Positions 3,581 to 17,294 are shown, counted from the first letter of the stretch. The stretch is DNA of 64,000 bases from Candidatus Omnitrophota bacterium (GCA_020341815.1 CP070837.1:892064-956063), one strand, 5' to 3'. Notes: generated by a model not told the origin, from the letters alone. Translations and numbers: made by a program.

Positions 3581-6500
3581 TGATTGATATAGTAAGTCTT
3601 ATCCTCTGTGGTTATTCTCCATACCGGGTAAAATGGTGAAGTGGTAAGCTCAGGTGAATAGACAAGCTCAGCCTTAATTTCAGCGGGCTCTTCTTCACTC
3701 TGGGCCAATACCTTCTCTATGGCTTCCTCTTTGCTAATCTGGATAAACCTTACCGGCTCATCCACCCAGGAGGCCTGTTTAAAGTAGCCCTCTTCCCTAT
3801 CAATGATTATGGCAGCATAGCTTAAGAACTGCCCCTGGAAGAAGTTGTCAAAAGGAACGAGGTAATAGTCCTTGCCTGCCTTATCCAGTCTTTGGACAGG
3901 GATAAAGCTTCTGGCAATAGAGCCCTGGATGCTTTGGGTGAACTTCTCGTCCGTAAGAAGCGAAGGGTCGATTATCTCTTTCCAGTTTATCCGGGAAGTC
4001 GCTTCGTTTTCCGGTTTGAAGATATTTAAGAGGTCTTCCTCTATGGTGTAAGAGATTAGCTCCTGCTCTTCATTAAGATTAACCACCAAGGCCCTGTCTA
4101 AAAGGTGCTTCTTGACAGGGTCGGTACTTTCTCCTGAGAGATAATCAGCTATCCTGACCAGTTCCCGGGTAGATTCATTTATTCGAGGTTCGGCTAAAGA
4201 GACCTCAGCATCACTTGGTTCAGAGGGCGGCTCAGCTACCTGAAGGTATTTGCCCTTATAATCATCTTCGGCCGTAAGAGGCAGTAGCATTGTAGCCTGG
4301 CATTCGCCAGCTGTGAGATAGTTATCCTGGCCTATGCCTTGGCCTTGCGGGTCAGTCAGCCAGAGGCCGTAGACCGTAAAGTTGCTAAGGTCTGAGAGCC
4401 GATGGTAACGGCTATGCGGCTCAAAGGGATAGGGGTTCATATCACAGGCTGCACCGTTTATCACCAGCCAGTGCCCGTATGTTCCGTAGGCAGGCACTGC
4501 AGCTGGCGTGTAGGGCTCTGCTACTAGGTCGGTTTCATCCTGGTAATTGTGCCAATCTTCCTTTGTGACAGGATAGGCTATCCAATGAGTGATGTCTCTT
4601 AGGTATTCCTTGAATTGGTCGGGTTCATACTCCTCAATGCCAAAGTTGTATCCATAGTTAGAACGACCTCCAGCTGGAGCATCACCTTCACCCAAGTTGT
4701 CATAATAATCAAAATGCCCCAAGGCATAGTCTATAGCATGAGGGTCCATTTCATCAAGGGAGGCTTTGTTGTAGGGATGGCCGTATTCATAGATCTCAAG
4801 CTGTGAGGGGGTATCATCTTCAGGACGCATCAGGTCTATAATCATCTGAGCGCTGGCTGCGCCTGATGAGGCAAAGTTATAAGGCTCAGGGAGTAACTCT
4901 TCGGCGTAATACTCAGGCAAGTCTATATGCAGAACCCAGCCTTTAAAGACTGAGATAGAGTCTTCGCCTTCGTTACCTGCTGCGTCTGTAGCAATAACCT
5001 TGACGATATTCCTCTGTCCTTCCCCTTCTATAGTTACGCCGGATGCAGAGAATGTCCCGTCACCCATATTGTCTGCCGATGAGTAATTTGTGTTAGCTCC
5101 TGTTACCTCTATTTCAACAGTTGCAGTATCATCATCTATCGTGCCTGATATGTCTATCAAGACATCATTAACTCCGGAATTATTAGCCGGATTGGTGATG
5201 GTAACCTGAGGTGCGGTCCTGTCAATGGTAAAGGAGACGCTGCCTGAGGAGCTATTGCCGGCCTCATCAGTAGCAGTTAAGGTAATAGTATAGTCTCCTT
5301 CTTCGGTATATGTATAAGTAGGAGGAAGATCATTATCACTGGTAACAACAATCTTATCCCCACTTGAACGGTCATCCTCTACTGTATAAGTTAAGGTAAC
5401 ATCCTGATTGGTCGGAGTAGATACAGGGTCAATACTGATTGTGGGTGGGGCGGTATCCGGTGAGTTCTCTAACTCCACTGTTATGCTCTGCCATGGAGAT
5501 TGATTTCCCGCTGCATCTATTGCCCGGGCTTCAAATGTTAGCGTTGAGCCGGGAGCTAAGGTGTCTGTCTGGACCAGCCCTGCCACAAAAGACCAATTGC
5601 TTATATCTTCTATGGTGACCGACACTCCTGCGTCTTCTCCATTTATCTTCGTCTCTATGGATTCCAATCCTGAATCATCTGTGGCAGTGCCGGAAAAGCT
5701 TAATGAAGTTCCTATTTGAATCTTTGCTCCGTCTTCCGGATAAGTTATAGCAACAACCGGAGGTGCGATATCTACATTGTTTACGGTTATAACGATTGTT
5801 TCCTGATTACTCCTAAGAAGTTCTTTATCGTATGCCCAGCAGGTCAATCGATAGTCTCCTCCTGCCTGGTCATATGTTGGTGTCCAACGAACAACACCTG
5901 CTTCAAACACGGCTCCTATTGGTACATCTACCCCTGCATTTTCCCATCCGTACCATACTTCCTCTCCATCGGGATCGCTGGCGGAAGGCGTAATAACTAA
6001 CTCCTGATTTTCATCTATTGTGCGATTTCCTATAGGATTTAAGATAGGCGCACGATTGACATCATTTACGGTAATCGTTACTTCTTGAGAATCAATAAAA
6101 CTGCCGTCCGAGACTGTAACTGTTACTTTATGCACTCCGGCATCATCGAATGTTGTGACATAGGTTTGCTCAATCATCCATCCAGAATAGCTATAGGTTA
6201 AAATGTCTTCTTCATCGGGGTCGGTAGCAGAAGGCGTAATAGTTATAGTCTGACCCTCAGTTACGGTTATATCGGCTATTTCATTCAGAACCGGCGGATG
6301 ATTATCGGTGAAGATAGCCTTATAATGATATCCCATATCTACCTGGTTTATATCAGGCTGAGCATTTGTACGGGTAGTATAGTTATAATTAAAGCCAAGA
6401 TTAATTGCTGCATCACTTCCTGCATCTACACAGGGTGAATATTTGTCAAGATAATATTGTCCCTGCGGTCCCTCCACAAAAAGCGGGTACATAAAGATGT

Positions 6501-10150: not shown

Positions 10151-10495
10151 TTATCTGGTATGGTAAAACTTTACCAGATGGCTGCCTTCAAAAAAAAGAT
10201 GCTGGGTTTCTGCAAGATAATCTACATTTATAGGCAAATTGGGGTAACGACCGTGATAAATCCATTCTTCCTGCACCATGCCCTGGGCATCGCTCTTGAC
10301 TACATTAACTATATCGGGGTCGCCCCACAAGGAGCGCACCTTCTCCTTGGTCATTCCTGTACGTAACGGACTTTCTCCTAATGGCTGGCGCATTATATCT
10401 TCGGGCGTAGGCGGGCTAATTTCGCTGCAGCCGGCAGAAAACAGCGCAAGAGCTAATCCTAAAAAGATTACGAGTTTATTCAGACTAAACCCCAT
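10151..10495 (-). CDS. bamE: BamE/SmpA-OmlA-like outer-membrane lipoprotein
   Basis: Lipobox FSAGC, then a GMTKEKVRSLWGDP motif typical of BamE. Confidence 0.55.
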   Translation of the reverse strand: MGFSLNKLVIFLGLALALFSAGCSEISPPTPEDIMRQPLGESPLRTGMTKEKVRSLWGDPDIVNVVKSDAQGMVQEEWIYHGRYPNLPINVDYLAETQHLFFEGSHLVKFYHTR

Positions 10496-10988
10496 TACCG
10501 CGCTCCCTCCTCTGGTTAATAAAACTGCCTAAGACAGCCTCATCTTGCGGCTCTACTTTAGTAAACTTAATTCCTGCGTTAAATAATTTTTTATCATTTC
10601 CTTCTGCACCAGGATTACCTGAGGCCTCTTTTATCCAGACTATCTCTCCTTGAGCAATGATAGTCTTCTCATTCTGCGGCAGGTTAAACTGAAGTTCCAG
10701 AAGCGTTCCGGGAAACAGCTTCTCAGTCAACCCTATACCTATGCCCCCTAAGCTAATATCCCGGCTTACAGCATCTCGCTTTTTAGCCGCATCATTGGAT
10801 AGAACTTCATAATGAACTTCAATCTCAGCGCTTACACGGGGAGTCTTCCTTCTCTCGGCTCCTTTATCCCAGACACCGTTCAGCGTTGCGCTCTTTTTAG
10901 CCAGCTTTCTTTTTCTGCGGTCGTCCTGATAAACTGCAATTAATATAAGGATTAAAAATACAATTAACCCTACCTGAACTATAATCAT
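10485..10988 (-). CDS. Membrane-anchored PilZ-domain protein
   Basis: N-terminal TM helix. RRKTPR and DISLGGIGIG motifs. Confidence 0.75.
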   Translation of the reverse strand: MIIVQVGLIVFLILILIAVYQDDRRKRKLAKKSATLNGVWDKGAERRKTPRVSAEIEVHYEVLSNDAAKKRDAVSRDISLGGIGIGLTEKLFPGTLLELQFNLPQNEKTIIAQGEIVWIKEASGNPGAEGNDKKLFNAGIKFTKVEPQDEAVLGSFINQRRERGNGV

Positions 10989-10992
10989 ATCT

Positions 10993-11442
10993 TTACTTTT
11001 CTTTGTTTAGGCGTGCAGAGACAATCTGGCTGACCAGCTTTCCATCGGCCTGCCCTTTAAAATGCGCCATGGCTGTTTTCATTACCTTACCGAAATCCGA
11101 TTTATCTTTTGCCCCTGTCTCGGCAATTACTTTATCCACCACTTTGGTAATTTCTTCGGATGAGAGCTGTTCGGGCAGATATTTTTTCAGGATTTGGAGC
11201 TCTTTGGTTTCTTTTTCTACTAGCTCCTGCCTGTTTCCCTTTTTGAATTGCTCGATGGAATCCTGATGCTGCTGCACCTGCTTGGAAATAATCTTAACAA
11301 CCTCTGCCTCCTGGAGCTTCTCGCCCTTCTTCTCAATCTGCTTATTATGGATAGCGGCCTTAAGCATCCGAAGAGTAGAGATAGCAATTGTATCTTTTCT
11401 CTTCAGGGCCTCTTTAAAATCACTTTCTATTTTCTCTATCAT
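10993..11442 (-). CDS. yqeY: GatB/YqeY-domain protein
   Basis: Full-length similarity to YqeY (ALKRKD..ISTLRML..AIHN...KE.EILKKYLP). Confidence 0.8.
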   Translation of the reverse strand: MIEKIESDFKEALKRKDTIAISTLRMLKAAIHNKQIEKKGEKLQEAEVVKIISKQVQQHQDSIEQFKKGNRQELVEKETKELQILKKYLPEQLSSEEITKVVDKVIAETGAKDKSDFGKVMKTAMAHFKGQADGKLVSQIVSARLNKEK

Positions 11443-11448
11443 CTTTGT

Positions 11449-11802
11449 TTAAATGTTTAAGTTTTTTAACTGGCTGTACATAAGATTGCATAAATATTGA
11501 AGAAAATCCTGCTTGGCTTCTTCGGAGATATGAATAAATTCTAAGCCCACGACACAACTATCCTTTCCCTCTCCGCACCAAACAACCTTGGCCTTAATTG
11601 CAACCGCATCAGATCTTGTGGGTATCTTAACATTAATATTTAAGAGGCTGCCTTTAGGTATCTCCTCTTTAACGGGGAAACTTACACCATCCGGGCTGAT
11701 ATCTTTAGTAGTGCTCTTCTGAGGCAAGGCCTCTTTCCCCTCAACAGTATAACTGACTTCTAAAGGAGTGGTCATGCGCACATATTTTCTTCTTTCTCGC
11801 AT
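11449..11802 (-). CDS. PilZ-domain protein
   Basis: RRKYVR and DISPDGVSF motifs. Confidence 0.75.
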   Translation of the reverse strand: MRERRKYVRMTTPLEVSYTVEGKEALPQKSTTKDISPDGVSFPVKEEIPKGSLLNINVKIPTRSDAVAIKAKVVWCGEGKDSCVVGLEFIHISEEAKQDFLQYLCNLMYSQLKNLNI

Positions 11803-11866
11803 TTTATTATCCTTTAGTTAAATATATTACAAAATAAATCCGAAAATCGCAAGATAAATCTTTATT

Positions 11867-12616
11867 TTAAAGAGAAAATTTCATCAAATCACTCGCGACA
11901 ACAATCTCGCCCTTAAAGGCTTTTTTGGCCTGTCTGGTTATTGCATTTGCCTCACAAACCGGATAAAGATGGGAAAGCACAAGTTTTTTACAGTTTGCTG
12001 CTTGAGCAATCTCTGCGGCCTCATAAGGCGTCAGGTGCCCTTTTACTTTCATCTCATCGGGAAAGGAGCAGTCCAAAATCAAGATATCGGCATCGCGCCC
12101 CAGCTTGACTATATTTTCGCACACATCTGTGTCACCGGAATAGACCGCTATTTTTTTACCCGACTCTATTCGGTATCCCAGGCTCTCAAGGCTATGTTGC
12201 ATCTGCGAAGTATATATCTTGTATCCGTCACCTTCAAAGAACGGCTCTTTTATTTCTCTTAAGTTAAGCTTATAAGCCTCAGGGCTTATAACATCCCCAT
12301 AAATATTCAATAATCCGTTGTAAAACTCCTGCAAGCCGCTAGGGCCAGCTAAAAGCAGTTCCTTTGTACGCAAAGATAAGGCATATTTTGCGGCGAATAA
12401 AAAAGTTGCCAGATCCAGCGTGTGGTCGGTGTGAAAATGCGTGTAAAAGATGCAATCCACATCATGATAAGTGACACCCGCCTTTAGCAGGTTCTTAATT
12501 GTTCCGGGACCCGTATCAAAAACTAAAGTCTTATTTTCTATTTTTATCAGCAAACCGGAGGCATTTCTTTTTAACGAAGGAACTCCGGTGCCTGAGCCCA
12601 GAATTGTTATTTCCAA
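11867..12616 (-). CDS. MBL-fold metallo-hydrolase (RNase Z-like)
   Basis: HFHTDH motif and an ILGSGTG..P N-terminus. Confidence 0.7.
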   Translation of the reverse strand: MEITILGSGTGVPSLKRNASGLLIKIENKTLVFDTGPGTIKNLLKAGVTYHDVDCIFYTHFHTDHTLDLATFLFAAKYALSLRTKELLLAGPSGLQEFYNGLLNIYGDVISPEAYKLNLREIKEPFFEGDGYKIYTSQMQHSLESLGYRIESGKKIAVYSGDTDVCENIVKLGRDADILILDCSFPDEMKVKGHLTPYEAAEIAQAANCKKLVLSHLYPVCEANAITRQAKKAFKGEIVVASDLMKFSL

Positions 12617-12619
12617 ATC

Positions 12620-13282
12620 TTAAACTTCCTTATCTATTTCCAAAGGACAAGTACTGCACAGCGGCTTTTTGCGGCAGAACGCTTTAGCCAGGCGCACAAT
12701 CAAGGCATGGTATTCATTGAACAGGCGCAAACTGCGAGGTAGATTTCTTTCGAATAAAGCTTGTATCTGAGCGTAAGTTGCCTGGTGCTTAATTAATTTA
12801 TGACGCGTGAGAAATCTTCTGGTGTAGGCATCTACAACGAAGACCGGCTTATCGGCCGCATACAATAAAATACTATCTGCAGTTTCAGGGCCAATTCCCT
12901 TAATCCCGAGTAATTTCTCTCTTAAAAGCGCCGGCTCCAAAGAAAACATCCGGGATAAGCTGCCCTTAAAGTCGGTAAATAAGGTTTCTAAGAAGCTTTT
13001 GATTCTGGCGGTTTTTATATTGTAATATCCGCAAGGCCTGATAGCTTCAGCTATCCTCTTTACATCGGTATGATATAACTTTTCGGGGCTGAGGAATCTT
13101 TTTTTCTTTAACTGAGAAATTGCCTTTTCTACATTTCCCCAGTTGGTATTTTGCGTAAGAATTGCACCCAGCACTACCTCAAAAGCGCTGTCTGCCGGCC
13201 ACCAATGCTGAGGACCAAAATGCGAATAAAGCTTCTTGTAAGCACCTTTTAAATATCCAGTAATATACTTATCGCGCTGCAT
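12620..13282 (-). CDS. Endonuclease III-like HhH-GPD family DNA glycosylase-related protein
   Basis: GIGPETADSILLYA HhH-GPD motif and a C-terminal Cys cluster. Confidence 0.7.
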   Translation of the reverse strand: MQRDKYITGYLKGAYKKLYSHFGPQHWWPADSAFEVVLGAILTQNTNWGNVEKAISQLKKKRFLSPEKLYHTDVKRIAEAIRPCGYYNIKTARIKSFLETLFTDFKGSLSRMFSLEPALLREKLLGIKGIGPETADSILLYAADKPVFVVDAYTRRFLTRHKLIKHQATYAQIQALFERNLPRSLRLFNEYHALIVRLAKAFCRKKPLCSTCPLEIDKEV

Positions 13283-13292
13283 CGTGCCTAAC

Positions 13293-13700
13293 TCAGGTCT
13301 CTTCCGGTGCCCCTATTTGATTAAGGAGTTCTTCCGTTGTGAAAATGGGGCATTTGGCTCTTAAGGCCAGGGCAATACTGTCACTGGGCCGGGCATCGAT
13401 GACAATCCCCTTGCCATTGTTGCCGTTCAAAACTAATTTGGCGTAAAATGTATTTTTCTGGAGCTTATCTATAATTACCTCTTTTAAACTTGCCCCCAAT
13501 CGCTCGATTGTGTTTTTGAGTAAGTCATGGGTCATCGGGCGCGGTGTGCGGATTCCGCTAATCTTGAGCTTGATGGCGGAGGCCTCAGGGATGCCAATGA
13601 TTATAGGCAGCGTGCGTTTGCCCTTCTTTTCCTTCAAGACCACCATCTGCTCCCCCCTTCTCTCGTTCATCAATATCCTGATTAATTCCATCTCTACCAT
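13293..13700 (-). CDS. Bifunctional nuclease family protein (DUF151)
   Basis: LPIIIGIPEASAI...ARPSDSIALALR signature. Confidence 0.8.
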   Translation of the reverse strand: MVEMELIRILMNERRGEQMVVLKEKKGKRTLPIIIGIPEASAIKLKISGIRTPRPMTHDLLKNTIERLGASLKEVIIDKLQKNTFYAKLVLNGNNGKGIVIDARPSDSIALALRAKCPIFTTEELLNQIGAPEET

Positions 13701-13701
13701 C

Positions 13702-14097
13702 TTAGCATTCCTGCGCTTCCTTATTATTAAAATTAGGGGATTGAAGTATGCATTGCTTAATCTTTTCTTTGTCTTTTTTGGATAAATCGGTAAAGAAAAT
13801 GGCTATATTCTGATAGGCGGTGTCTGCCTCTTTCATAATTACGGGTTCGGACCTTACCACCACTCCGTTGCATTTAACTTTTTCGGTGTTAAGCTTATTT
13901 CTGCGATAGATGGGAAGAAGCAAAATAAGGCTTATTTTGGACATCAGGGGCAGGGGTTTGTCTATGCGGCAATAGACTCCCGAACAGCTTATATTTCTGG
14001 TTTCGGTAATTACGTCTAAGCCTTTTTTGGAAATCTTAAGCGGCAGGATAGTTTGTGTACGCTGATATTTCCTTCTCTCCAGTACTGCTCTAGACAT
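13702..14097 (-). CDS. PilZ-domain protein
   Basis: RRKYQR and NISCSGVYC motifs. Confidence 0.7.
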   Translation of the reverse strand: MSRAVLERRKYQRTQTILPLKISKKGLDVITETRNISCSGVYCRIDKPLPLMSKISLILLLPIYRRNKLNTEKVKCNGVVVRSEPVIMKEADTAYQNIAIFFTDLSKKDKEKIKQCILQSPNFNNKEAQEC

Positions 14098-14127
14098 CTT
14101 TTACCTCCGCGCTTTCCAGAGCTCTCT

Positions 14128-15234
14128 TCACAAGCTCTCTGCTAAATATTTTATCGAACAGACCATCTTCTCTGCCTCTTTATAGGCGGCGGAACTCTTT
14201 CTTATCTTGTAACCGGACATCTCTCCTTGGCTATCGTAAACGCCTCTTAAATGAATAATCAAGCGATTAGCGACCAAAGGGCTAGCTTTTGGCGAATTTC
14301 CTATCTCGACTCTATAATAAAGCTTATTTCTTGTAAAAGGCCCCCACTCCTGCCGAATCTGCTCAAACAGGGAAATATCTTTTTCTTTAAAGGCCTGCAA
14401 ATTATATTTTGCGGGGTCGGCGGAAGTAATAAAACATCCGTGTTTTTTAAACACATCTATAACGGTGGAATGTATAGCTCGTTTGGAGGCGTTGATATCA
14501 ACAATTATGCTTTCCGGCTCAACCCTAACAGCTGCCTCCAGAACTTCTCCGGCCTTCTCCAACATTGCGGAGGCCTCTCTATTTTTGGGATTCAGCTTCA
14601 ATATTTCCTGGAGTTTCTCGGCGGCCAGTTCATATTCCATTTCTTTAGAATATCTCCTGGCCTGGATAAGAAGTTTCTCCACTCTATCGCGCCGGGAGGC
14701 CTTCTCTACCTTATCGAGCAATTCAAGGGCCTCTCTATTGTCCGGATCCAGCCTCAAAACCTCACCAGCCTTTTTTGTAAGCTTTAGATAATCCTTATCC
14801 TTGAAATAATCCTGGGCCTCCTTAAGAAGCTCATCTACCCTATCATGCAGAAGTTCCTTTCTCTGTTCTCGGCCAAGCATGGTCTCTTTTATGAACGGCT
14901 TTACTATATCGCCGACTTTAATAGTCTTATTTTTATAAGTACATTCTATATCGGCTCCGGTAAACTTCTTACGCACTTTCGCTGCCTTAATTTCGGCGAC
15001 TTCTGCACCCTGGCGGTAGACCCTAAAGGAGGAATCCTGCTTGATGCCGTCGTTAGCCCCTAAATCGAATATGACAAAACCCATATTTTTATCGACATAT
15101 ACAACACGCCCCGAAGACCCTTGAGCAAAACCAGATGTGCTTATAAATACAAACACAGAAATTAGCATGACAGATCTTAATAATCTCTTCATTGGTCTAA
15201 TCTCTCCTTTTGTATTCTGTACCCACAACCTCAA
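14128..15234 (-). CDS. Secreted hypothetical protein with TPR-like/coiled-coil repeats
   Basis: Signal peptide. Repeated LRLDPDNREALELL / LKLNPKNREASAML units. Has a 4 nt overlap with the upstream CobA-like gene. Confidence 0.5.
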   Translation of the reverse strand: MRLWVQNTKGEIRPMKRLLRSVMLISVFVFISTSGFAQGSSGRVVYVDKNMGFVIFDLGANDGIKQDSSFRVYRQGAEVAEIKAAKVRKKFTGADIECTYKNKTIKVGDIVKPFIKETMLGREQRKELLHDRVDELLKEAQDYFKDKDYLKLTKKAGEVLRLDPDNREALELLDKVEKASRRDRVEKLLIQARRYSKEMEYELAAEKLQEILKLNPKNREASAMLEKAGEVLEAAVRVEPESIIVDINASKRAIHSTVIDVFKKHGCFITSADPAKYNLQAFKEKDISLFEQIRQEWGPFTRNKLYYRVEIGNSPKASPLVANRLIIHLRGVYDSQGEMSGYKIRKSSAAYKEAEKMVCSIKYLAESL

Positions 15235-15740
15235 TATTCTATTCCCGCCCGGGCAACAATACCACTTTTATAATAATGCTTTAACTCTTTAATATCACTT
15301 ACCAGGTCTGCAATTTCCAAAATCTCAGGATGAGCATCTCTTCCGGTGAGAACTATCTCCAGGCGCTGGGGCCTGTTTTTTAAGATCTTTTTGAGTTCTC
15401 CGAGTTTAAACAGACCGAAGTTAAGGGCGACATTGGCTTCATCTAAAATTACTAAATCGTATTTGTCGCTTTCTATGGCTTCCTGGCTGGCGGCTAATCC
15501 CTTTTGCGCAAGCTGTTTATCTTTTAAGGACACGCTCTCGCGGCAGATTCTTTCCCCGGAGCCTGCCTGCAATATCTTAATTTTACGAAAACGGCGAAGG
15601 GCTTTTATCTCGCCGAGGTCCTTCCCTTCCTTCATAAACTGAACCAGAAAAACTCGCCTTCCCTGCCCCAGGGCCCTTAAGGCAAGCCCTATGGCTGCGG
15701 TGGTTTTGCCCTTACCGTTACCGGTATAAACTTGTAACAT
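15231..15740 (-). CDS. Cob(I)yrinic acid a,c-diamide adenosyltransferase family protein (CobA/CobO/BtuR)
   Basis: VYTGNGKGKTTAA...VQF.KEG...LDEANVAL...TGR..HPEILE.ADLVS similarity across the whole length to BtuR. Confidence 0.8.
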   Translation of the reverse strand: MLQVYTGNGKGKTTAAIGLALRALGQGRRVFLVQFMKEGKDLGEIKALRRFRKIKILQAGSGERICRESVSLKDKQLAQKGLAASQEAIESDKYDLVILDEANVALNFGLFKLGELKKILKNRPQRLEIVLTGRDAHPEILEIADLVSDIKELKHYYKSGIVARAGIEY

Positions 15741-15775
15741 TGTCTTGGGGGTGTTTTTTTATTTTCATAGAAGTT

Positions 15776-15804
15776 ATCATACAAGATAACTATTTCTTTG
15801 TCAA
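15776..15804 (-). promoter_or_regulatory. Sigma70-like promoter (TTGACA, 17 nt spacer, TATGAT) immediately upstream of the CobA-like gene
   Basis: Read from the sequence on the minus strand. Confidence 0.4.
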
Positions 15805-15845
15805 TAAAAAACGGATAAACGCGAAATACTTGCGCTCATCCGTCT
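15805..15845 (-). terminator. Intrinsic terminator hairpin downstream of GEMM riboswitch 1 (likely expression platform)
   Basis: A 12 bp stem (including two G.U pairs) ACGGAUGAGCGC...GCGUUUAUCCGU followed by UUUUUU on the minus-sense strand. Confidence 0.5.
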
Positions 15846-15997
15846 AGTCAATAATGTATGATTCCCACGAGCCGATAAAGCTAGAGGCTTTATCTCACGC
15901 ACCTCCCATGCTCCGGCAGCCCAACTACCATCTCGGAGAATGCCTGTATGTTTATTTCGACAACCTTAAAGGGAGATGTTTTTTTGGCTCCCTTTTC

Positions 15998-16092
15998 TAC
16001 ACGGCGTCCTTTTCATCTACGGCATTTCTTCCGATTTAGGCTTGCGGCTTTGCGTCCCAGCCTTTCGACTGGTTTGCCTTTATCGGCTCTAT
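15998..16092 (-). ncRNA. c-di-GMP-I (GEMM) riboswitch aptamer, copy 1
   Basis: Minus-sense AAGGCAAACCAGUCGAAAGGCUGGGACGCAAAGCCGCAAGCCUAAAUCGG... This matches the GGCAAACC-P2(GNRA GAAA)-GGGACGCAAAGCC-GCCUAAA core of V. cholerae Vc2. Confidence 0.7.
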
Positions 16093-16097
16093 AACAA

Positions 16098-16125
16098 GTA
16101 TATCACAAAAATCTTCTATCGTCAA
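16098..16125 (-). promoter_or_regulatory. Sigma70-like promoter (TTGACG, 16 nt spacer, TATACT) driving the riboswitch 1 leader
   Basis: Lies a few nt upstream of the aptamer 5' end. Confidence 0.45.
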
Positions 16126-16133
16126 GAAAACCG

Positions 16134-17294
16134 CTACTTGCCCATCCCTACCCTTTGGACAACCTGAAAGATCTTGCCCTCGGTCTGAATAGAGGGGGCA
16201 ATGATAATCTCGCTACGGTGCATCTCCTTGATATCTTTGGCCCCTATGCTGCCCATGGAGGTCTGCAGGGCCCCCATCAAGTTCTGCGAACCGTCGTCAA
16301 CCCGTGCCGGCCCAAAGAGTATCTCTTCCAGGCTACCGGCCACCCCCACCTTTATCCGTGTTCCTCGAGGGAGATTAAAATGCGGTGTAGCCATACCCCA
16401 GTGATACCCCCTGCCGGGCGCTTCATAAGTACGGGCAAAGGCCGAACCCACCATTACCGCATCTGCCCCGCAGGCAAAGGCCTTACAGATGTCTCCGCCT
16501 GTACGCATGCCTCCATCGGTAATAATGGGAACATATCTCTTGCTCTTTTTATAATAATCATCCCGGGCAGATGCTGCATCGCAAGTTGCCGTAACCTGAG
16601 GCACGCCAATGCCTAAGACACCCCTGGTCGTGCAGGCCGCCCCCGGGCCTATGCCTACCAGTATAGCACTGGCCCCTGTCTTGGCTAACTCCATGGTCAT
16701 CTCGTAAGTGACGCAGTTGCCTACAATTACGGGCATCTTGGTTTCAGTGCAGAACTTATGCAGATCTAAGGCCTTGTATTCATTGGAGATATGCTTTACG
16801 CTGCAGACAGTAGATTGCACTATGAATATATCGCAGCCTGCTTCCTGGGCAATAGAGGCAAACCTGGCGGCTTTTTGGGGTATGGCACTGACTACTGCCG
16901 GAACCCCGGCCTTTTTCACCTCTTCTATTCTCCTGGAAATAAGCTCTTCTTTTATCGGCTCAACATAAATGCTTTGGACAAGTTTCGTGGCTTCTTCAGG
17001 TTGAGCCTTGGCAATCTTGTCTAAAACCTCATTAGGGTTGTCATACCTGGTCTGCACCCCCTCTAAGTTTAAGACCGCTATACCCCCCAGCTTTCCCATC
17101 TTAATGGCAAAGGCCACATCCACTACCCCATCCATAGCCGCCGCCATAATCGGCACACTGAACTGGCGCTCGGCGATCTTCCATGTAGTATCTACCTCGC
17201 TAGGATTTATGGTCACGGAGCCGGGAACCAAGGCAACTTCATCAAATCCGTAACACCGTCGGGCTTTTCTACCCCTGCCTATAAATAATCCCAT
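16134..17294 (-). CDS. IMP dehydrogenase-family protein lacking a CBS pair (GuaB-related)
   Basis: GIGPGAACTTR catalytic-loop motif and a TIM-barrel IMPDH fold signature. 386 aa. Confidence 0.8.
   Translation of the reverse strand: MGLFIGRGRKARRCYGFDEVALVPGSVTINPSEVDTTWKIAERQFSVPIMAAAMDGVVDVAFAIKMGKLGGIAVLNLEGVQTRYDNPNEVLDKIAKAQPEEATKLVQSIYVEPIKEELISRRIEEVKKAGVPAVVSAIPQKAARFASIAQEAGCDIFIVQSTVCSVKHISNEYKALDLHKFCTETKMPVIVGNCVTYEMTMELAKTGASAILVGIGPGAACTTRGVLGIGVPQVTATCDAASARDDYYKKSKRYVPIITDGGMRTGGDICKAFACGADAVMVGSAFARTYEAPGRGYHWGMATPHFNLPRGTRIKVGVAGSLEEILFGPARVDDGSQNLMGALQTSMGSIGAKDIKEMHRSEIIIAPSIQTEGKIFQVVQRVGMGK

Follow-up and report, generated by a model that had tools for sequence, protein, structure and literature searches.

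Annotation of a riboswitch usually presumes control of the next gene. In EutX and Rli55, which carry an adenosylcobalamin riboswitch, the aptamer is instead part of a regulatory small RNA, the protein target is EutV, and the logic is that of a short versus a long isoform. The GEMM-I class of aptamers for cyclic di-GMP (c-di-GMP) is well known, and both stand-alone and dual-terminator GEMM-I RNAs have been described, with a single precedent for each. The merRNA of Bdellovibrio bacteriovorus is a stand-alone GEMM-I non-coding RNA of 445 nucleotides (nt), defined by RNA-seq and not tied to a downstream open reading frame (ORF); a role as a sponge or store for c-di-GMP was proposed, and the RNA was reported not to be conserved outside Bdellovibrio (PMC3627812). 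Bc1 of Bacillus thuringiensis is a GEMM-I RNA with two terminators, of which the first responds to c-di-GMP and the second is constitutive and masks the effect downstream (PMC11218506). Here, we describe a GEMM-I RNA in 64,000 nt of DNA from a Candidatus Omnitrophota bacterium (GCA_020341815.1 CP070837.1:892064-956063; this whole stretch is called the window, and positions are counted from its first letter). The RNA stands upstream of an operon rich in PilZ genes, and comparison of related loci argues that the well-conserved aptamer is uncoupled from that operon and has the build of a stable small RNA.

The reading we favour, in which we place about even confidence, is that the locus encodes a self-contained small RNA that binds c-di-GMP and is bounded by a promoter and a terminator of its own, the operon being transcribed separately. 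A sigma-70-type promoter would fire about 7 nt after its TATACT box, so that the RNA would start at G16089. Its first 12 nt would pair with 15880-15869, clamping the 5' end to the 3' region (the clamp); transcription would stop at a strong independent terminator at 15843-15806 (T2); and the operon, with its CobA-like, TPR and PilZ genes, would be driven from its own promoter at 15804-15776. The resulting RNA of about 284 nt may act as a c-di-GMP buffer or sponge, or as a ligand-gated RNA. In the clamped state, pocket residues A17-G20 together with G11-G14 would be paired to the distal strand; in the ligand-bound state, the same residues would form the local P1 helix and the pocket, and the distal strand and the 5' end would be freed. 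Such a toggle would alter the stability of the RNA or its binding partners. We infer the transcript ends, the ligand dependence of the toggle and a function in trans from the following elements (residues are numbered as in the GEMM-I RNA Vc2).

16097-16125, minus strand: promoter of the RNA unit (promoter 1), TTGACG (16125-16120), 17-nt spacer, TATACT (16102-16097), with TG at 16105-16104
15806-16089, minus strand: predicted primary transcript of about 284 nt, placed by promoter spacing and terminator
16078-16089, minus strand: clamp 5' strand GAGCCGAUAAAG, common to the local P1 and the distal helix
15912-16088, minus strand: GEMM-I aptamer, Rfam RF01051
15937-16029, minus strand: P2 extension of 93 nt, a cmscan insertion in the distal P2 loop
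15910-15915, minus strand: local P1 3' strand CGGAGC (C93-C98), partner of G9-G14, placed from the sequence with numbering checked against Vc2 and the second aptamer of the window
15883-15906, minus strand: extra hairpin GGAGG(UG)...CCUCU between aptamer and distal strand (helix 7 of the five lineage RNAs)
15869-15880, minus strand: clamp distal strand CUUUAUCGGCUC, completing the 12-bp closing helix
15806-15843, minus strand: intrinsic terminator T2, stem 15843-15832 / 15822-15811, loop 15831-15823, U-run 15811-15806
15776-15804, minus strand: operon promoter (promoter 2), TTGACA (15804-15799), 17 nt, TATGAT (15781-15776), 11 of 12 consensus matches

That the operon promoter does not depend on this RNA can be seen from its relatives. 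Synteny with the window is seen in two loci, L056, whose TPR protein is 77% identical, and L057, where the identity is 38%, and six more (L084-L089) were picked from CobA homologs that are 62-67% identical; all of these were retrieved via proteins, without use of the RNA sequence. L056 carries this RNA too, its insert being 92 nt long (RF01051, 59.8 bits). L057 aligns with the window across the whole intergenic region, including promoter 1, the 20-nt 5' flank, GGAGGUG, the distal strand, promoter 2, and the P2-insert motifs AUGCCGUAGAU and UACAGGCAU; a terminator is included as well, its sequence entirely different from T2 of the window. Two additional hairpins behind the GAC bulge bring the RF01051 score of L057 down to 30 bits, and L088 has a full RNA with both kinds of insertion, which Rfam misses at the gathering threshold. 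In L086 (330-400), a decayed copy is left (..GCCGAAAGGCTGGGACAGCAAAGC.. / ..GCCGAAAGGCUGGGACAGCAAAGC..), fused to the terminator and the operon promoter, which demonstrates directly that loss of the element need not disturb the promoter of the operon. In L087 and L089 the RNA is absent, but the terminator and promoter 2 are there; L084 and L085 have promoter 2 alone, directly 3' of the upstream gene, which is a different one in L085; and L001, an Omnitrophota single-amplified genome, has TTGACA-17-TATGAT alone, after an IMPDH-like gene. All 11 related loci (the window, L056, L057, L082, L084-L089 and L001) have the operon promoter and five (the window, L056, L057, L082 and L088) have the RNA, with the remnant in L086 and no trace in the other five. 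Because a consensus operon promoter stands in all 11 loci, five of them without the RNA and a sixth with a remnant, the RNA is probably not an attenuator of the operon, and the claim of an earlier, sequence-only reading of this DNA, namely that it is a switching leader of the CobA-like/secreted-protein/PilZ gene block, is not supported. On the sequences compared, the RNA unit is an optional module, promoter 2 is universal in the clade, and the terminator is frequent and independent of the RNA.

In the five RNA-bearing sequences, 93.6% of cells are standard pairs, against 31-44% when the partners are slid, and there are seven double-sided changes, distributed over the P2 base, the first insert stem and the terminator. 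A general association of GEMM-I with CobA genes was considered and rejected, as none of the 18 loci run in Rfam, out of 55 GTDB loci with CobA relatives (best 58% identity), had a GEMM-I RNA beside the CobA gene. In two distant relatives, L004 (5036-5225) and L054 (4484-4633), one an Omnitrophota and the other a Pirellulales metagenome-assembled genome, the CobA-like gene is followed at a short distance by a cobalamin riboswitch, which would lead the next gene.

The identity of the aptamer is clear: it matches RF01051 (c-di-GMP-I, GEMM-I) over the full model (1-87) with 69.8 bits, for a gathering score of 35, and an E value of 1.3e-11 (Rfam cmscan). The cobalamin riboswitch RF00174 has no match in 15700-16200 even at E <= 10, which rules out that identity. 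The sequence-only reading had chosen GEMM-I over cobalamin, and had reported two GEMM-I aptamers in the window and a promoter TTGACA-17-TATGAT before the CobA-like gene, all of which is borne out, and every sequence element that it quoted is present on the minus strand. Other parts of it need correction. Its aptamer interval, 16092-15998, does contain GEMM-I sequence but only the 5' half of an aptamer that is about twice as long; the interval was short because the 93-nt P2 insertion splits the aptamer, so that the 3' half was mistaken for an expression platform. Both boxes of its RNA promoter are present, with a spacer of 17 rather than 16 nt, and its terminator with a 12-bp stem lies about 70 nt, not 150 nt, downstream of the aptamer.

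The anatomy is that of GEMM-I. The string GGCAAACC...AAAUCGG is found at 16078-16031 (minus strand) and the 3' half, CCGAGAUGGUAGUUGGGCUGCCGGA, at 15936-15912. The P1a hairpin, CCAGUC-GAAA-GGCUGG (16072-16057), has a GNRA-type GAAA tetraloop that would dock into a receptor in P2, of which both halves are present (CCUAAA, 16040-16035, and GAUGG, 15932-15928). In the cmscan alignment, the ligand-contacting positions are G20 = G16078, A47 = A16051 (which we take to be a ligand-contacting nucleotide) and C92 = C15916. In the GEMM-Ib riboswitches of Geobacter, which sense 3',3'-cGAMP, position 20 is A instead of G. In the window (16078) and all relatives it is G, although this position falls within the invariant 19-mer used in the scan described below and so is fixed there; the RNA does not fit the GEMM-Ib class, and the residue points to c-di-GMP rather than cGAMP as the likely ligand. 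The numbering and roles of G20, C92 and G14 match the description of Vc2 (PMC11705072). Binding of c-di-GMP by this RNA is predicted from the identity of the aptamer. The 311-nt region folds far below shuffled controls (z = -5.3), and its minimum free energy (MFE) fold shows the GEMM-I architecture.

The P2 extension is predicted to fold as an unbroken continuation of P2. Two stems, UCGGA/UCCGA and AUGCC/GGCAU, lead to an internal loop that is rich in A and contains the conserved motifs GCCGUAGAU and UACAGGC, beyond which come an inner stem and a terminal hairpin. Homologous extensions are present in L056, L057 and L088, with double-sided changes in the P2 base and the UCGGA/UCCGA stem; the syntenic ortholog L082 lacks the extension and has an insert of about 20 nt. 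At its foot (16021-16011 and 15948-15941, minus strand), the strands CC-GUA-GA-UG / UA-CA-GG, kept in L057 and L088, resemble in sequence a kink-turn (C-stem, 3-nt bulge, G.A pair) with what would be a non-standard 2b.2n pair; the inserts of L059 and L068, unrelated in other respects, hold a similar pair, GUAGAU...CAUAC.

The extra hairpin between aptamer and distal strand is 100% paired in the five lineage RNAs, with changes of G-C/G-U alone. Its AGGAGGUG (15906-15900, minus strand, with equivalents in L057, L082 and L088) is a perfect complement of the 16S anti-Shine-Dalgarno sequence and is unchanged in all five, though the partner strand differs (CCUCU or CUUCC); it might be a Shine-Dalgarno mimic or a tertiary contact. 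A small ORF following it was rejected, as the lineage RNAs share no conserved start codon or reading frame.

The most unusual element of the RNA is the clamp. GAGCCGAUAAAG and CUUUAUCGGCUC form 12 perfect pairs, which are present in the MFE fold along with the aptamer and the terminator; by our estimate, about 0.003 perfect 12-mers would be expected by chance in 300 nt. The distal strand is located 35 nt beyond the aptamer, so the helix encloses the aptamer, the P2 extension and the extra hairpin, and it begins at the predicted transcript start (16089). The 5' strand is identical in L056, L057 and L088. The complementarity between 5' flank and downstream segment noted in the sequence-only reading is real and exclusive with the local P1; it is a conserved helix closing the whole aptamer, and not half of a terminator/antiterminator pair. 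Covariation could not bear on it, as the relatives retrieved via proteins show no variation in the helix and the search pattern fixes it in all others.

The clamp excludes the canonical local P1 (G14-C93, C13-G94, C12-G95, G9-C98). It takes up G11-G14, canonically the short P1 beside the pair between C92 and the ligand, and its inner four pairs occupy the pocket residues A17-G20. Despite the clamp, the local P1 partner is retained (CCGGAGC in the window, CCGAAGC in most relatives). When a ligand-competent fold was forced (G14-C93, C13-G94, C12-G97, G11-C98, with G95-A96 bulged and A15-G20 unpaired), its energy was -86.9 kcal/mol, compared with -101.6 kcal/mol for the clamped MFE fold, which is the more stable by 14.7 kcal/mol. 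This gap is of the same order as the binding energy of Vc2 for c-di-GMP (Kd picomolar to nanomolar). Since the clamp shares the P1 and pocket nucleotides, c-di-GMP binding probably competes with the clamp, and with a modelled gap of this order a toggle between clamped and bound states, either driven by the ligand or trapped co-transcriptionally, is plausible; it would explain why the sequences of both strands are frozen. A local hairpin, GAUAAAGC/GCUUUAUC (15895-15873), forms in the forced fold of the window and L056; it was rejected as a switch partner of the distal strand, as it is not conserved in L057 and L082 and has only a weak analogue in L088.

Whatever the output of such a toggle, it is not terminator 15843-15806. 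T2 has a 12-bp stem of -19.2 kcal/mol on its own, and its hairpin (helix 8) is conserved among the lineage RNAs with compensatory changes. It is unchanged in both the MFE fold and the forced fold, in neither of which does the clamp contact it, and thus the alternative terminator and antiterminator folds that the sequence-only reading had envisaged do not appear in structure prediction. Because T2 is the same in both folds and is present in L087 and L089, which lack the RNA, it is a free-standing hairpin independent of the RNA. A candidate antiterminator, the 5' strand GCCGAUAAAGGC against the 3' strand of T2 (10 of 12 matches in the window), was rejected; the pairing is not conserved, because the T2 sequence of L057 differs and the 5' strand is the same. 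Across the window, L057, L082 and L088, no conserved pairing to T2, and no expression platform exclusive with the bound aptamer, was found. Tandem terminators of the Bc1 type do not occur in the RNA of the window, whose distal strand is followed by GUGGGAAUCAUACA and no U-run, so T2 alone qualifies; a clamp followed by a U-run (T1) in addition to T2 is present in L082, L088 and about nine further relatives.

Of the two promoters, promoter 1 has 10 of 12 consensus matches, with its -10 box ending 7 nt ahead of G16089, and the -35 box of promoter 2 is abutted by the U-run of T2. The -10 box of promoter 2, TTGTATGAT, is read in frame by gene callers, giving N-termini MYDK.../...ILYD... in 13 of 29 CobA homologs.

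The RNA of the window belongs to a wider family. A metagenome scan for the exact 19-mer GAGCCGATAAAGGCAAACC gave 25 loci, a small and biased sample in which the 5' strand is identical by construction, and these comprised nine chance ORF matches, three GEMM-I leaders of ordinary size (L063 and L072 with a Shine-Dalgarno sequence and ATG, L075 with an adjacent terminator) and 13 clamped RNAs, so that, together with the window, L056, L057 and L088, there are 17 clamped RNAs. The distal strand (..AUCGGCUC) forms at least 7 contiguous pairs with the 5' strand, or at least 8 counting G-U, in the 16 tabulated (L064 was assessed by eye). Their P2 inserts measure 60-110 nt and lack homology between lineages. 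In 14 of the 16 RNAs with upstream sequence, the -10 box of a sigma-70-type promoter ends 6-9 nt (mostly 7) ahead of G9/GAGCC, which would put the start of the RNA on the first base of the helix. About 11 of the 17, including L082 and L088, have a U-run immediately 3' of the distal strand (e.g. GGCUCUUUUUAUUU), and 14 have a separate strong hairpin terminator further on. The five without a U-run (the window, L056, L057, L073 and L079) all have the hairpin terminator, and the three without the hairpin terminator (L062, L078 and L069) all have the U-run. A new promoter follows the RNA in L073 (TTGACA-17-TAATAT), L083 (TATAAT, 7 nt, then ATG) and L082. In L059 and L069 the next gene is convergent, and therefore these copies have no target in cis; within the L059/L068/L069 lineage, the downstream context is not conserved. 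We suggest tentatively, and at somewhat less than even confidence, that Omnitrophota and other uncultivated bacteria hold a family of autonomous, clamped and heavily decorated GEMM-I RNAs, each beginning precisely with the clamp and finishing at a terminator. In this view, c-di-GMP would draw the 5' strand from the clamp into the canonical P1 and pocket, and the RNAs would be ligand-gated trans-acting RNAs or c-di-GMP buffers rather than leaders, with lineage-specific P2 extensions as effector or protein-binding modules.

Some members are decorated further. In L057 (560-600), L088 (about 2748-2785) and L070 (minus strand), the segment that joins P1a to the closing G-C pairs holds two small extra hairpins, placed right behind the GAC bulge and differing in stem sequence, and the RF01051 scores of these RNAs are 30 bits, no match and 41.6 bits, respectively. 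Because the insertion drops scores to or below the gathering score, standard annotation under-detects decorated GEMM-I RNAs. In L071 (214-650) and L067 (23-470), a clamped RNA with a U-run and a second terminator is followed by a new promoter (TTGTTT-17-TATACT in L071). After it comes, in L071, a second GEMM-I-like sequence of ordinary size, judged by eye; L067 has a degenerate GAUAAACC-type start alone. By sequence, this layout would be one of tandem separate units rather than tandem aptamers.

Several points weigh against an autonomous unit. All of the transcription signals (both promoters, start site and terminator) are predicted from consensus sequences; the RNA of L082 has no recognisable promoter of its own; the scan is biased as stated; and in the lineage of the window the RNA is always directly upstream of, and co-oriented with, the same operon, which is rich in PilZ c-di-GMP receptors and so fits the expected look of a cis-regulator. 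The abutment of the T2 U-run and the -35 box allows some coupling, via leaky termination or promoter occlusion, and two mutually exclusive pairings are both strictly conserved, which implies a switch and hence the need for an output. A classical transcriptional riboswitch, in which c-di-GMP sets readthrough at 15806 and so adds to basal expression from promoter 2, would supply one: the aptamer is genuine and co-oriented directly upstream of an operon with three PilZ genes, the arrangement is retained in L056, L057, L082 and L088, and the other GEMM-I RNA of the window, at 52.1 kb, has the layout of a canonical leader, with its terminator close by. We consider this explanation unlikely, since no segment of the RNA competes with the T2 stem in either conformer, the wholly different terminator of L057 beside invariant switching strands means that no antiterminator pairing is conserved, and T2 with the operon promoter (L087, L089), or the promoter alone (L084, L085, L001), occurs where there is no RNA.

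It is likewise improbable, though in keeping with the mutual exclusion of local P1 and clamp and with an energy gap of the order of the Vc2 binding energy, that clamp and U-run form a regulated long-range terminator T1, prevented when c-di-GMP locks the 5' strand into the local P1, masked by a constitutive T2 and vestigial or repurposed in the window. Such a terminator would account for the U-run that stands immediately behind the distal strand in about 11 of the 17 clamped RNAs, among them the close relatives L082 and L088, and the decay of the copy in L086 shows that a locus can do without the element. There is a precedent in Bc1, whose terminators are 28 bp apart, T1 opening with c-di-GMP and T2 masking the effect (PMC11218506). 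Yet the clamp is fully kept in five RNAs without a U-run, so termination is not its sole role; a regulated T1 followed by a constitutive T2 yields no obvious regulatory output; and there is no established case of a terminator stem with about 200 nt of structure inside it. Most improbable is a 3'-untranslated or terminator element of the groES-groEL-IMPDH-like operon, by which c-di-GMP would set the stability of the readthrough mRNA for an enzyme of guanine nucleotides. Between the IMPDH-like stop codon (16134) and the RNA there is no terminator; the RNA follows an IMPDH-like gene in the window, L056, L082 and L088 (a partial IMPDH-like ORF in L057), and the lack of a promoter in L082 would suit such an element. 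Synteny alone accounts for this adjacency, however; the clamp requires a free or terminal 5' strand, and 14 of 16 family members, from unrelated contexts, have a near-consensus promoter at a constant spacing of 7 nt from the helix. An autonomous unit therefore remains the reading that we prefer.

The genes relevant to the RNA locus are all on the minus strand, and the RNA sits in a 393-nt intergenic region between the IMPDH-family gene and the CobA/BtuR-like gene.

17294-16134, minus strand: IMPDH-family gene, preceded upstream by groES and groEL
15231-15740, minus strand: CobA/BtuR-like gene (Pfam, 201 bits)
14128-15234, minus strand: TPR signal-peptide protein gene, encoding a protein identical to JSV30_04825
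10485-15740, minus strand: downstream operon, syntenic in L056 and L057

From the IMPDH-like stop codon (16134) there are 8 nt to the -35 box of promoter 1, with no hairpin in between. The operon has the order CobA/BtuR-like, TPR secreted, PilZ, bifunctional nuclease, HhH-GPD glycosylase, MBL-fold, PilZ, YqeY and PilZ, an order kept in L056, L057, L086, L087 and L089. The CobA/BtuR-like adenosyltransferase is the first gene of an operon that has no other cobalamin genes and encodes three PilZ proteins; the MBL-fold protein has a weak Anti-Pycsar (Apyc1) match. From the -10 box of the operon promoter to the ATG there are 35 nt without an obvious Shine-Dalgarno sequence in the window. In L082 (about 590-567, minus strand; TATGAT-AAAGGGCAG-ATG) and L083 (about 6440-6460; TATAAT-GCCCATC-ATG), this gap is 7-9 nt, which suggests that the mRNAs of these relatives may be leaderless.

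The second RF01051 match of the window (52202-52120, minus strand, 59.7 bits) is a useful internal contrast to the clamped RNA unit. Its local P1 is contiguous (G14-C93, U13-A94, U12-G95, U11-A96, G10-C97), and in its context (52260-49268) it is a canonical leader, with a TTGACA-17-TATACT promoter and, about 25 nt past the aptamer, a terminator, GGCCUUUGGC...GCCAAAGGCC with U6, followed by a Shine-Dalgarno sequence and GTG. A small ORF, a 473-aa signalling protein (GGDEF-like by eye) and a PilT-like ATPase come after it.

Limited literature searches on the GGC variant and on stand-alone c-di-GMP small RNAs gave merRNA and Bc1 as the only precedents; in them we found no description of a clamp that starts at the first transcript base, encloses the aptamer and overlaps the pocket, of three tolerated insertion sites, of a recurrent layout of promoter, RNA, terminator(s) and promoter, or of the gain and loss of an RNA beside an unchanged operon promoter. 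The boundaries of the aptamer are corrected here, and the hairpin-decorated relatives L057 and L088 lie below the gathering score and are missed by Rfam. If our reading is true, caution is due with c-di-GMP regulons deduced from GEMM-I matches alone, and the RNA would be a natural case of a ligand competing with an end-to-end clamp helix.

Compared with Vc2, the RNA of the window has the full model match, the GAAA-capped P1a, the CCUAAA/GAUGG receptor, G20, A47 and C92, and a possible local P1 with G14-C93. It differs in its 93-nt P2 extension, in the extra hairpin after the aptamer, in the 12-bp long-range helix that competes with P1 from the first nucleotide and pairs A17-G20, and in having no expression platform overlapping the aptamer and a downstream operon with its own promoter. 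With Bc1, it is the relatives L082 and L088 that share the possession of T1 (clamp and U-run) and T2; the terminators of Bc1 are local hairpins in the long leader of regulated genes, whereas the T1 of this lineage would be a long-range helix around the aptamer, with its U-run lost in the window and a separate promoter after T2. EutX and Rli55 are alike in that the form or activity of a non-coding RNA with an aptamer, rather than a downstream ORF, would be the output, for another class of ligand. By analogy, the favoured reading would match both the sink idea of merRNA and the uncoupling by a constitutive second terminator in Bc1. Many Omnitrophota have an unusual lifestyle, as does Bdellovibrio, the host of merRNA. 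Like merRNA, the RNA of the window has its GEMM-I aptamer within a discrete non-coding unit, here predicted from sequence alone; unlike merRNA, it has a clamp between its 5' and 3' regions, lineage-specific insertions and a family in many metagenomes, and thus, if the reading is true, merRNA would be not a lone case in Bdellovibrio but one of a class of second-messenger-binding small RNAs in candidate phyla.

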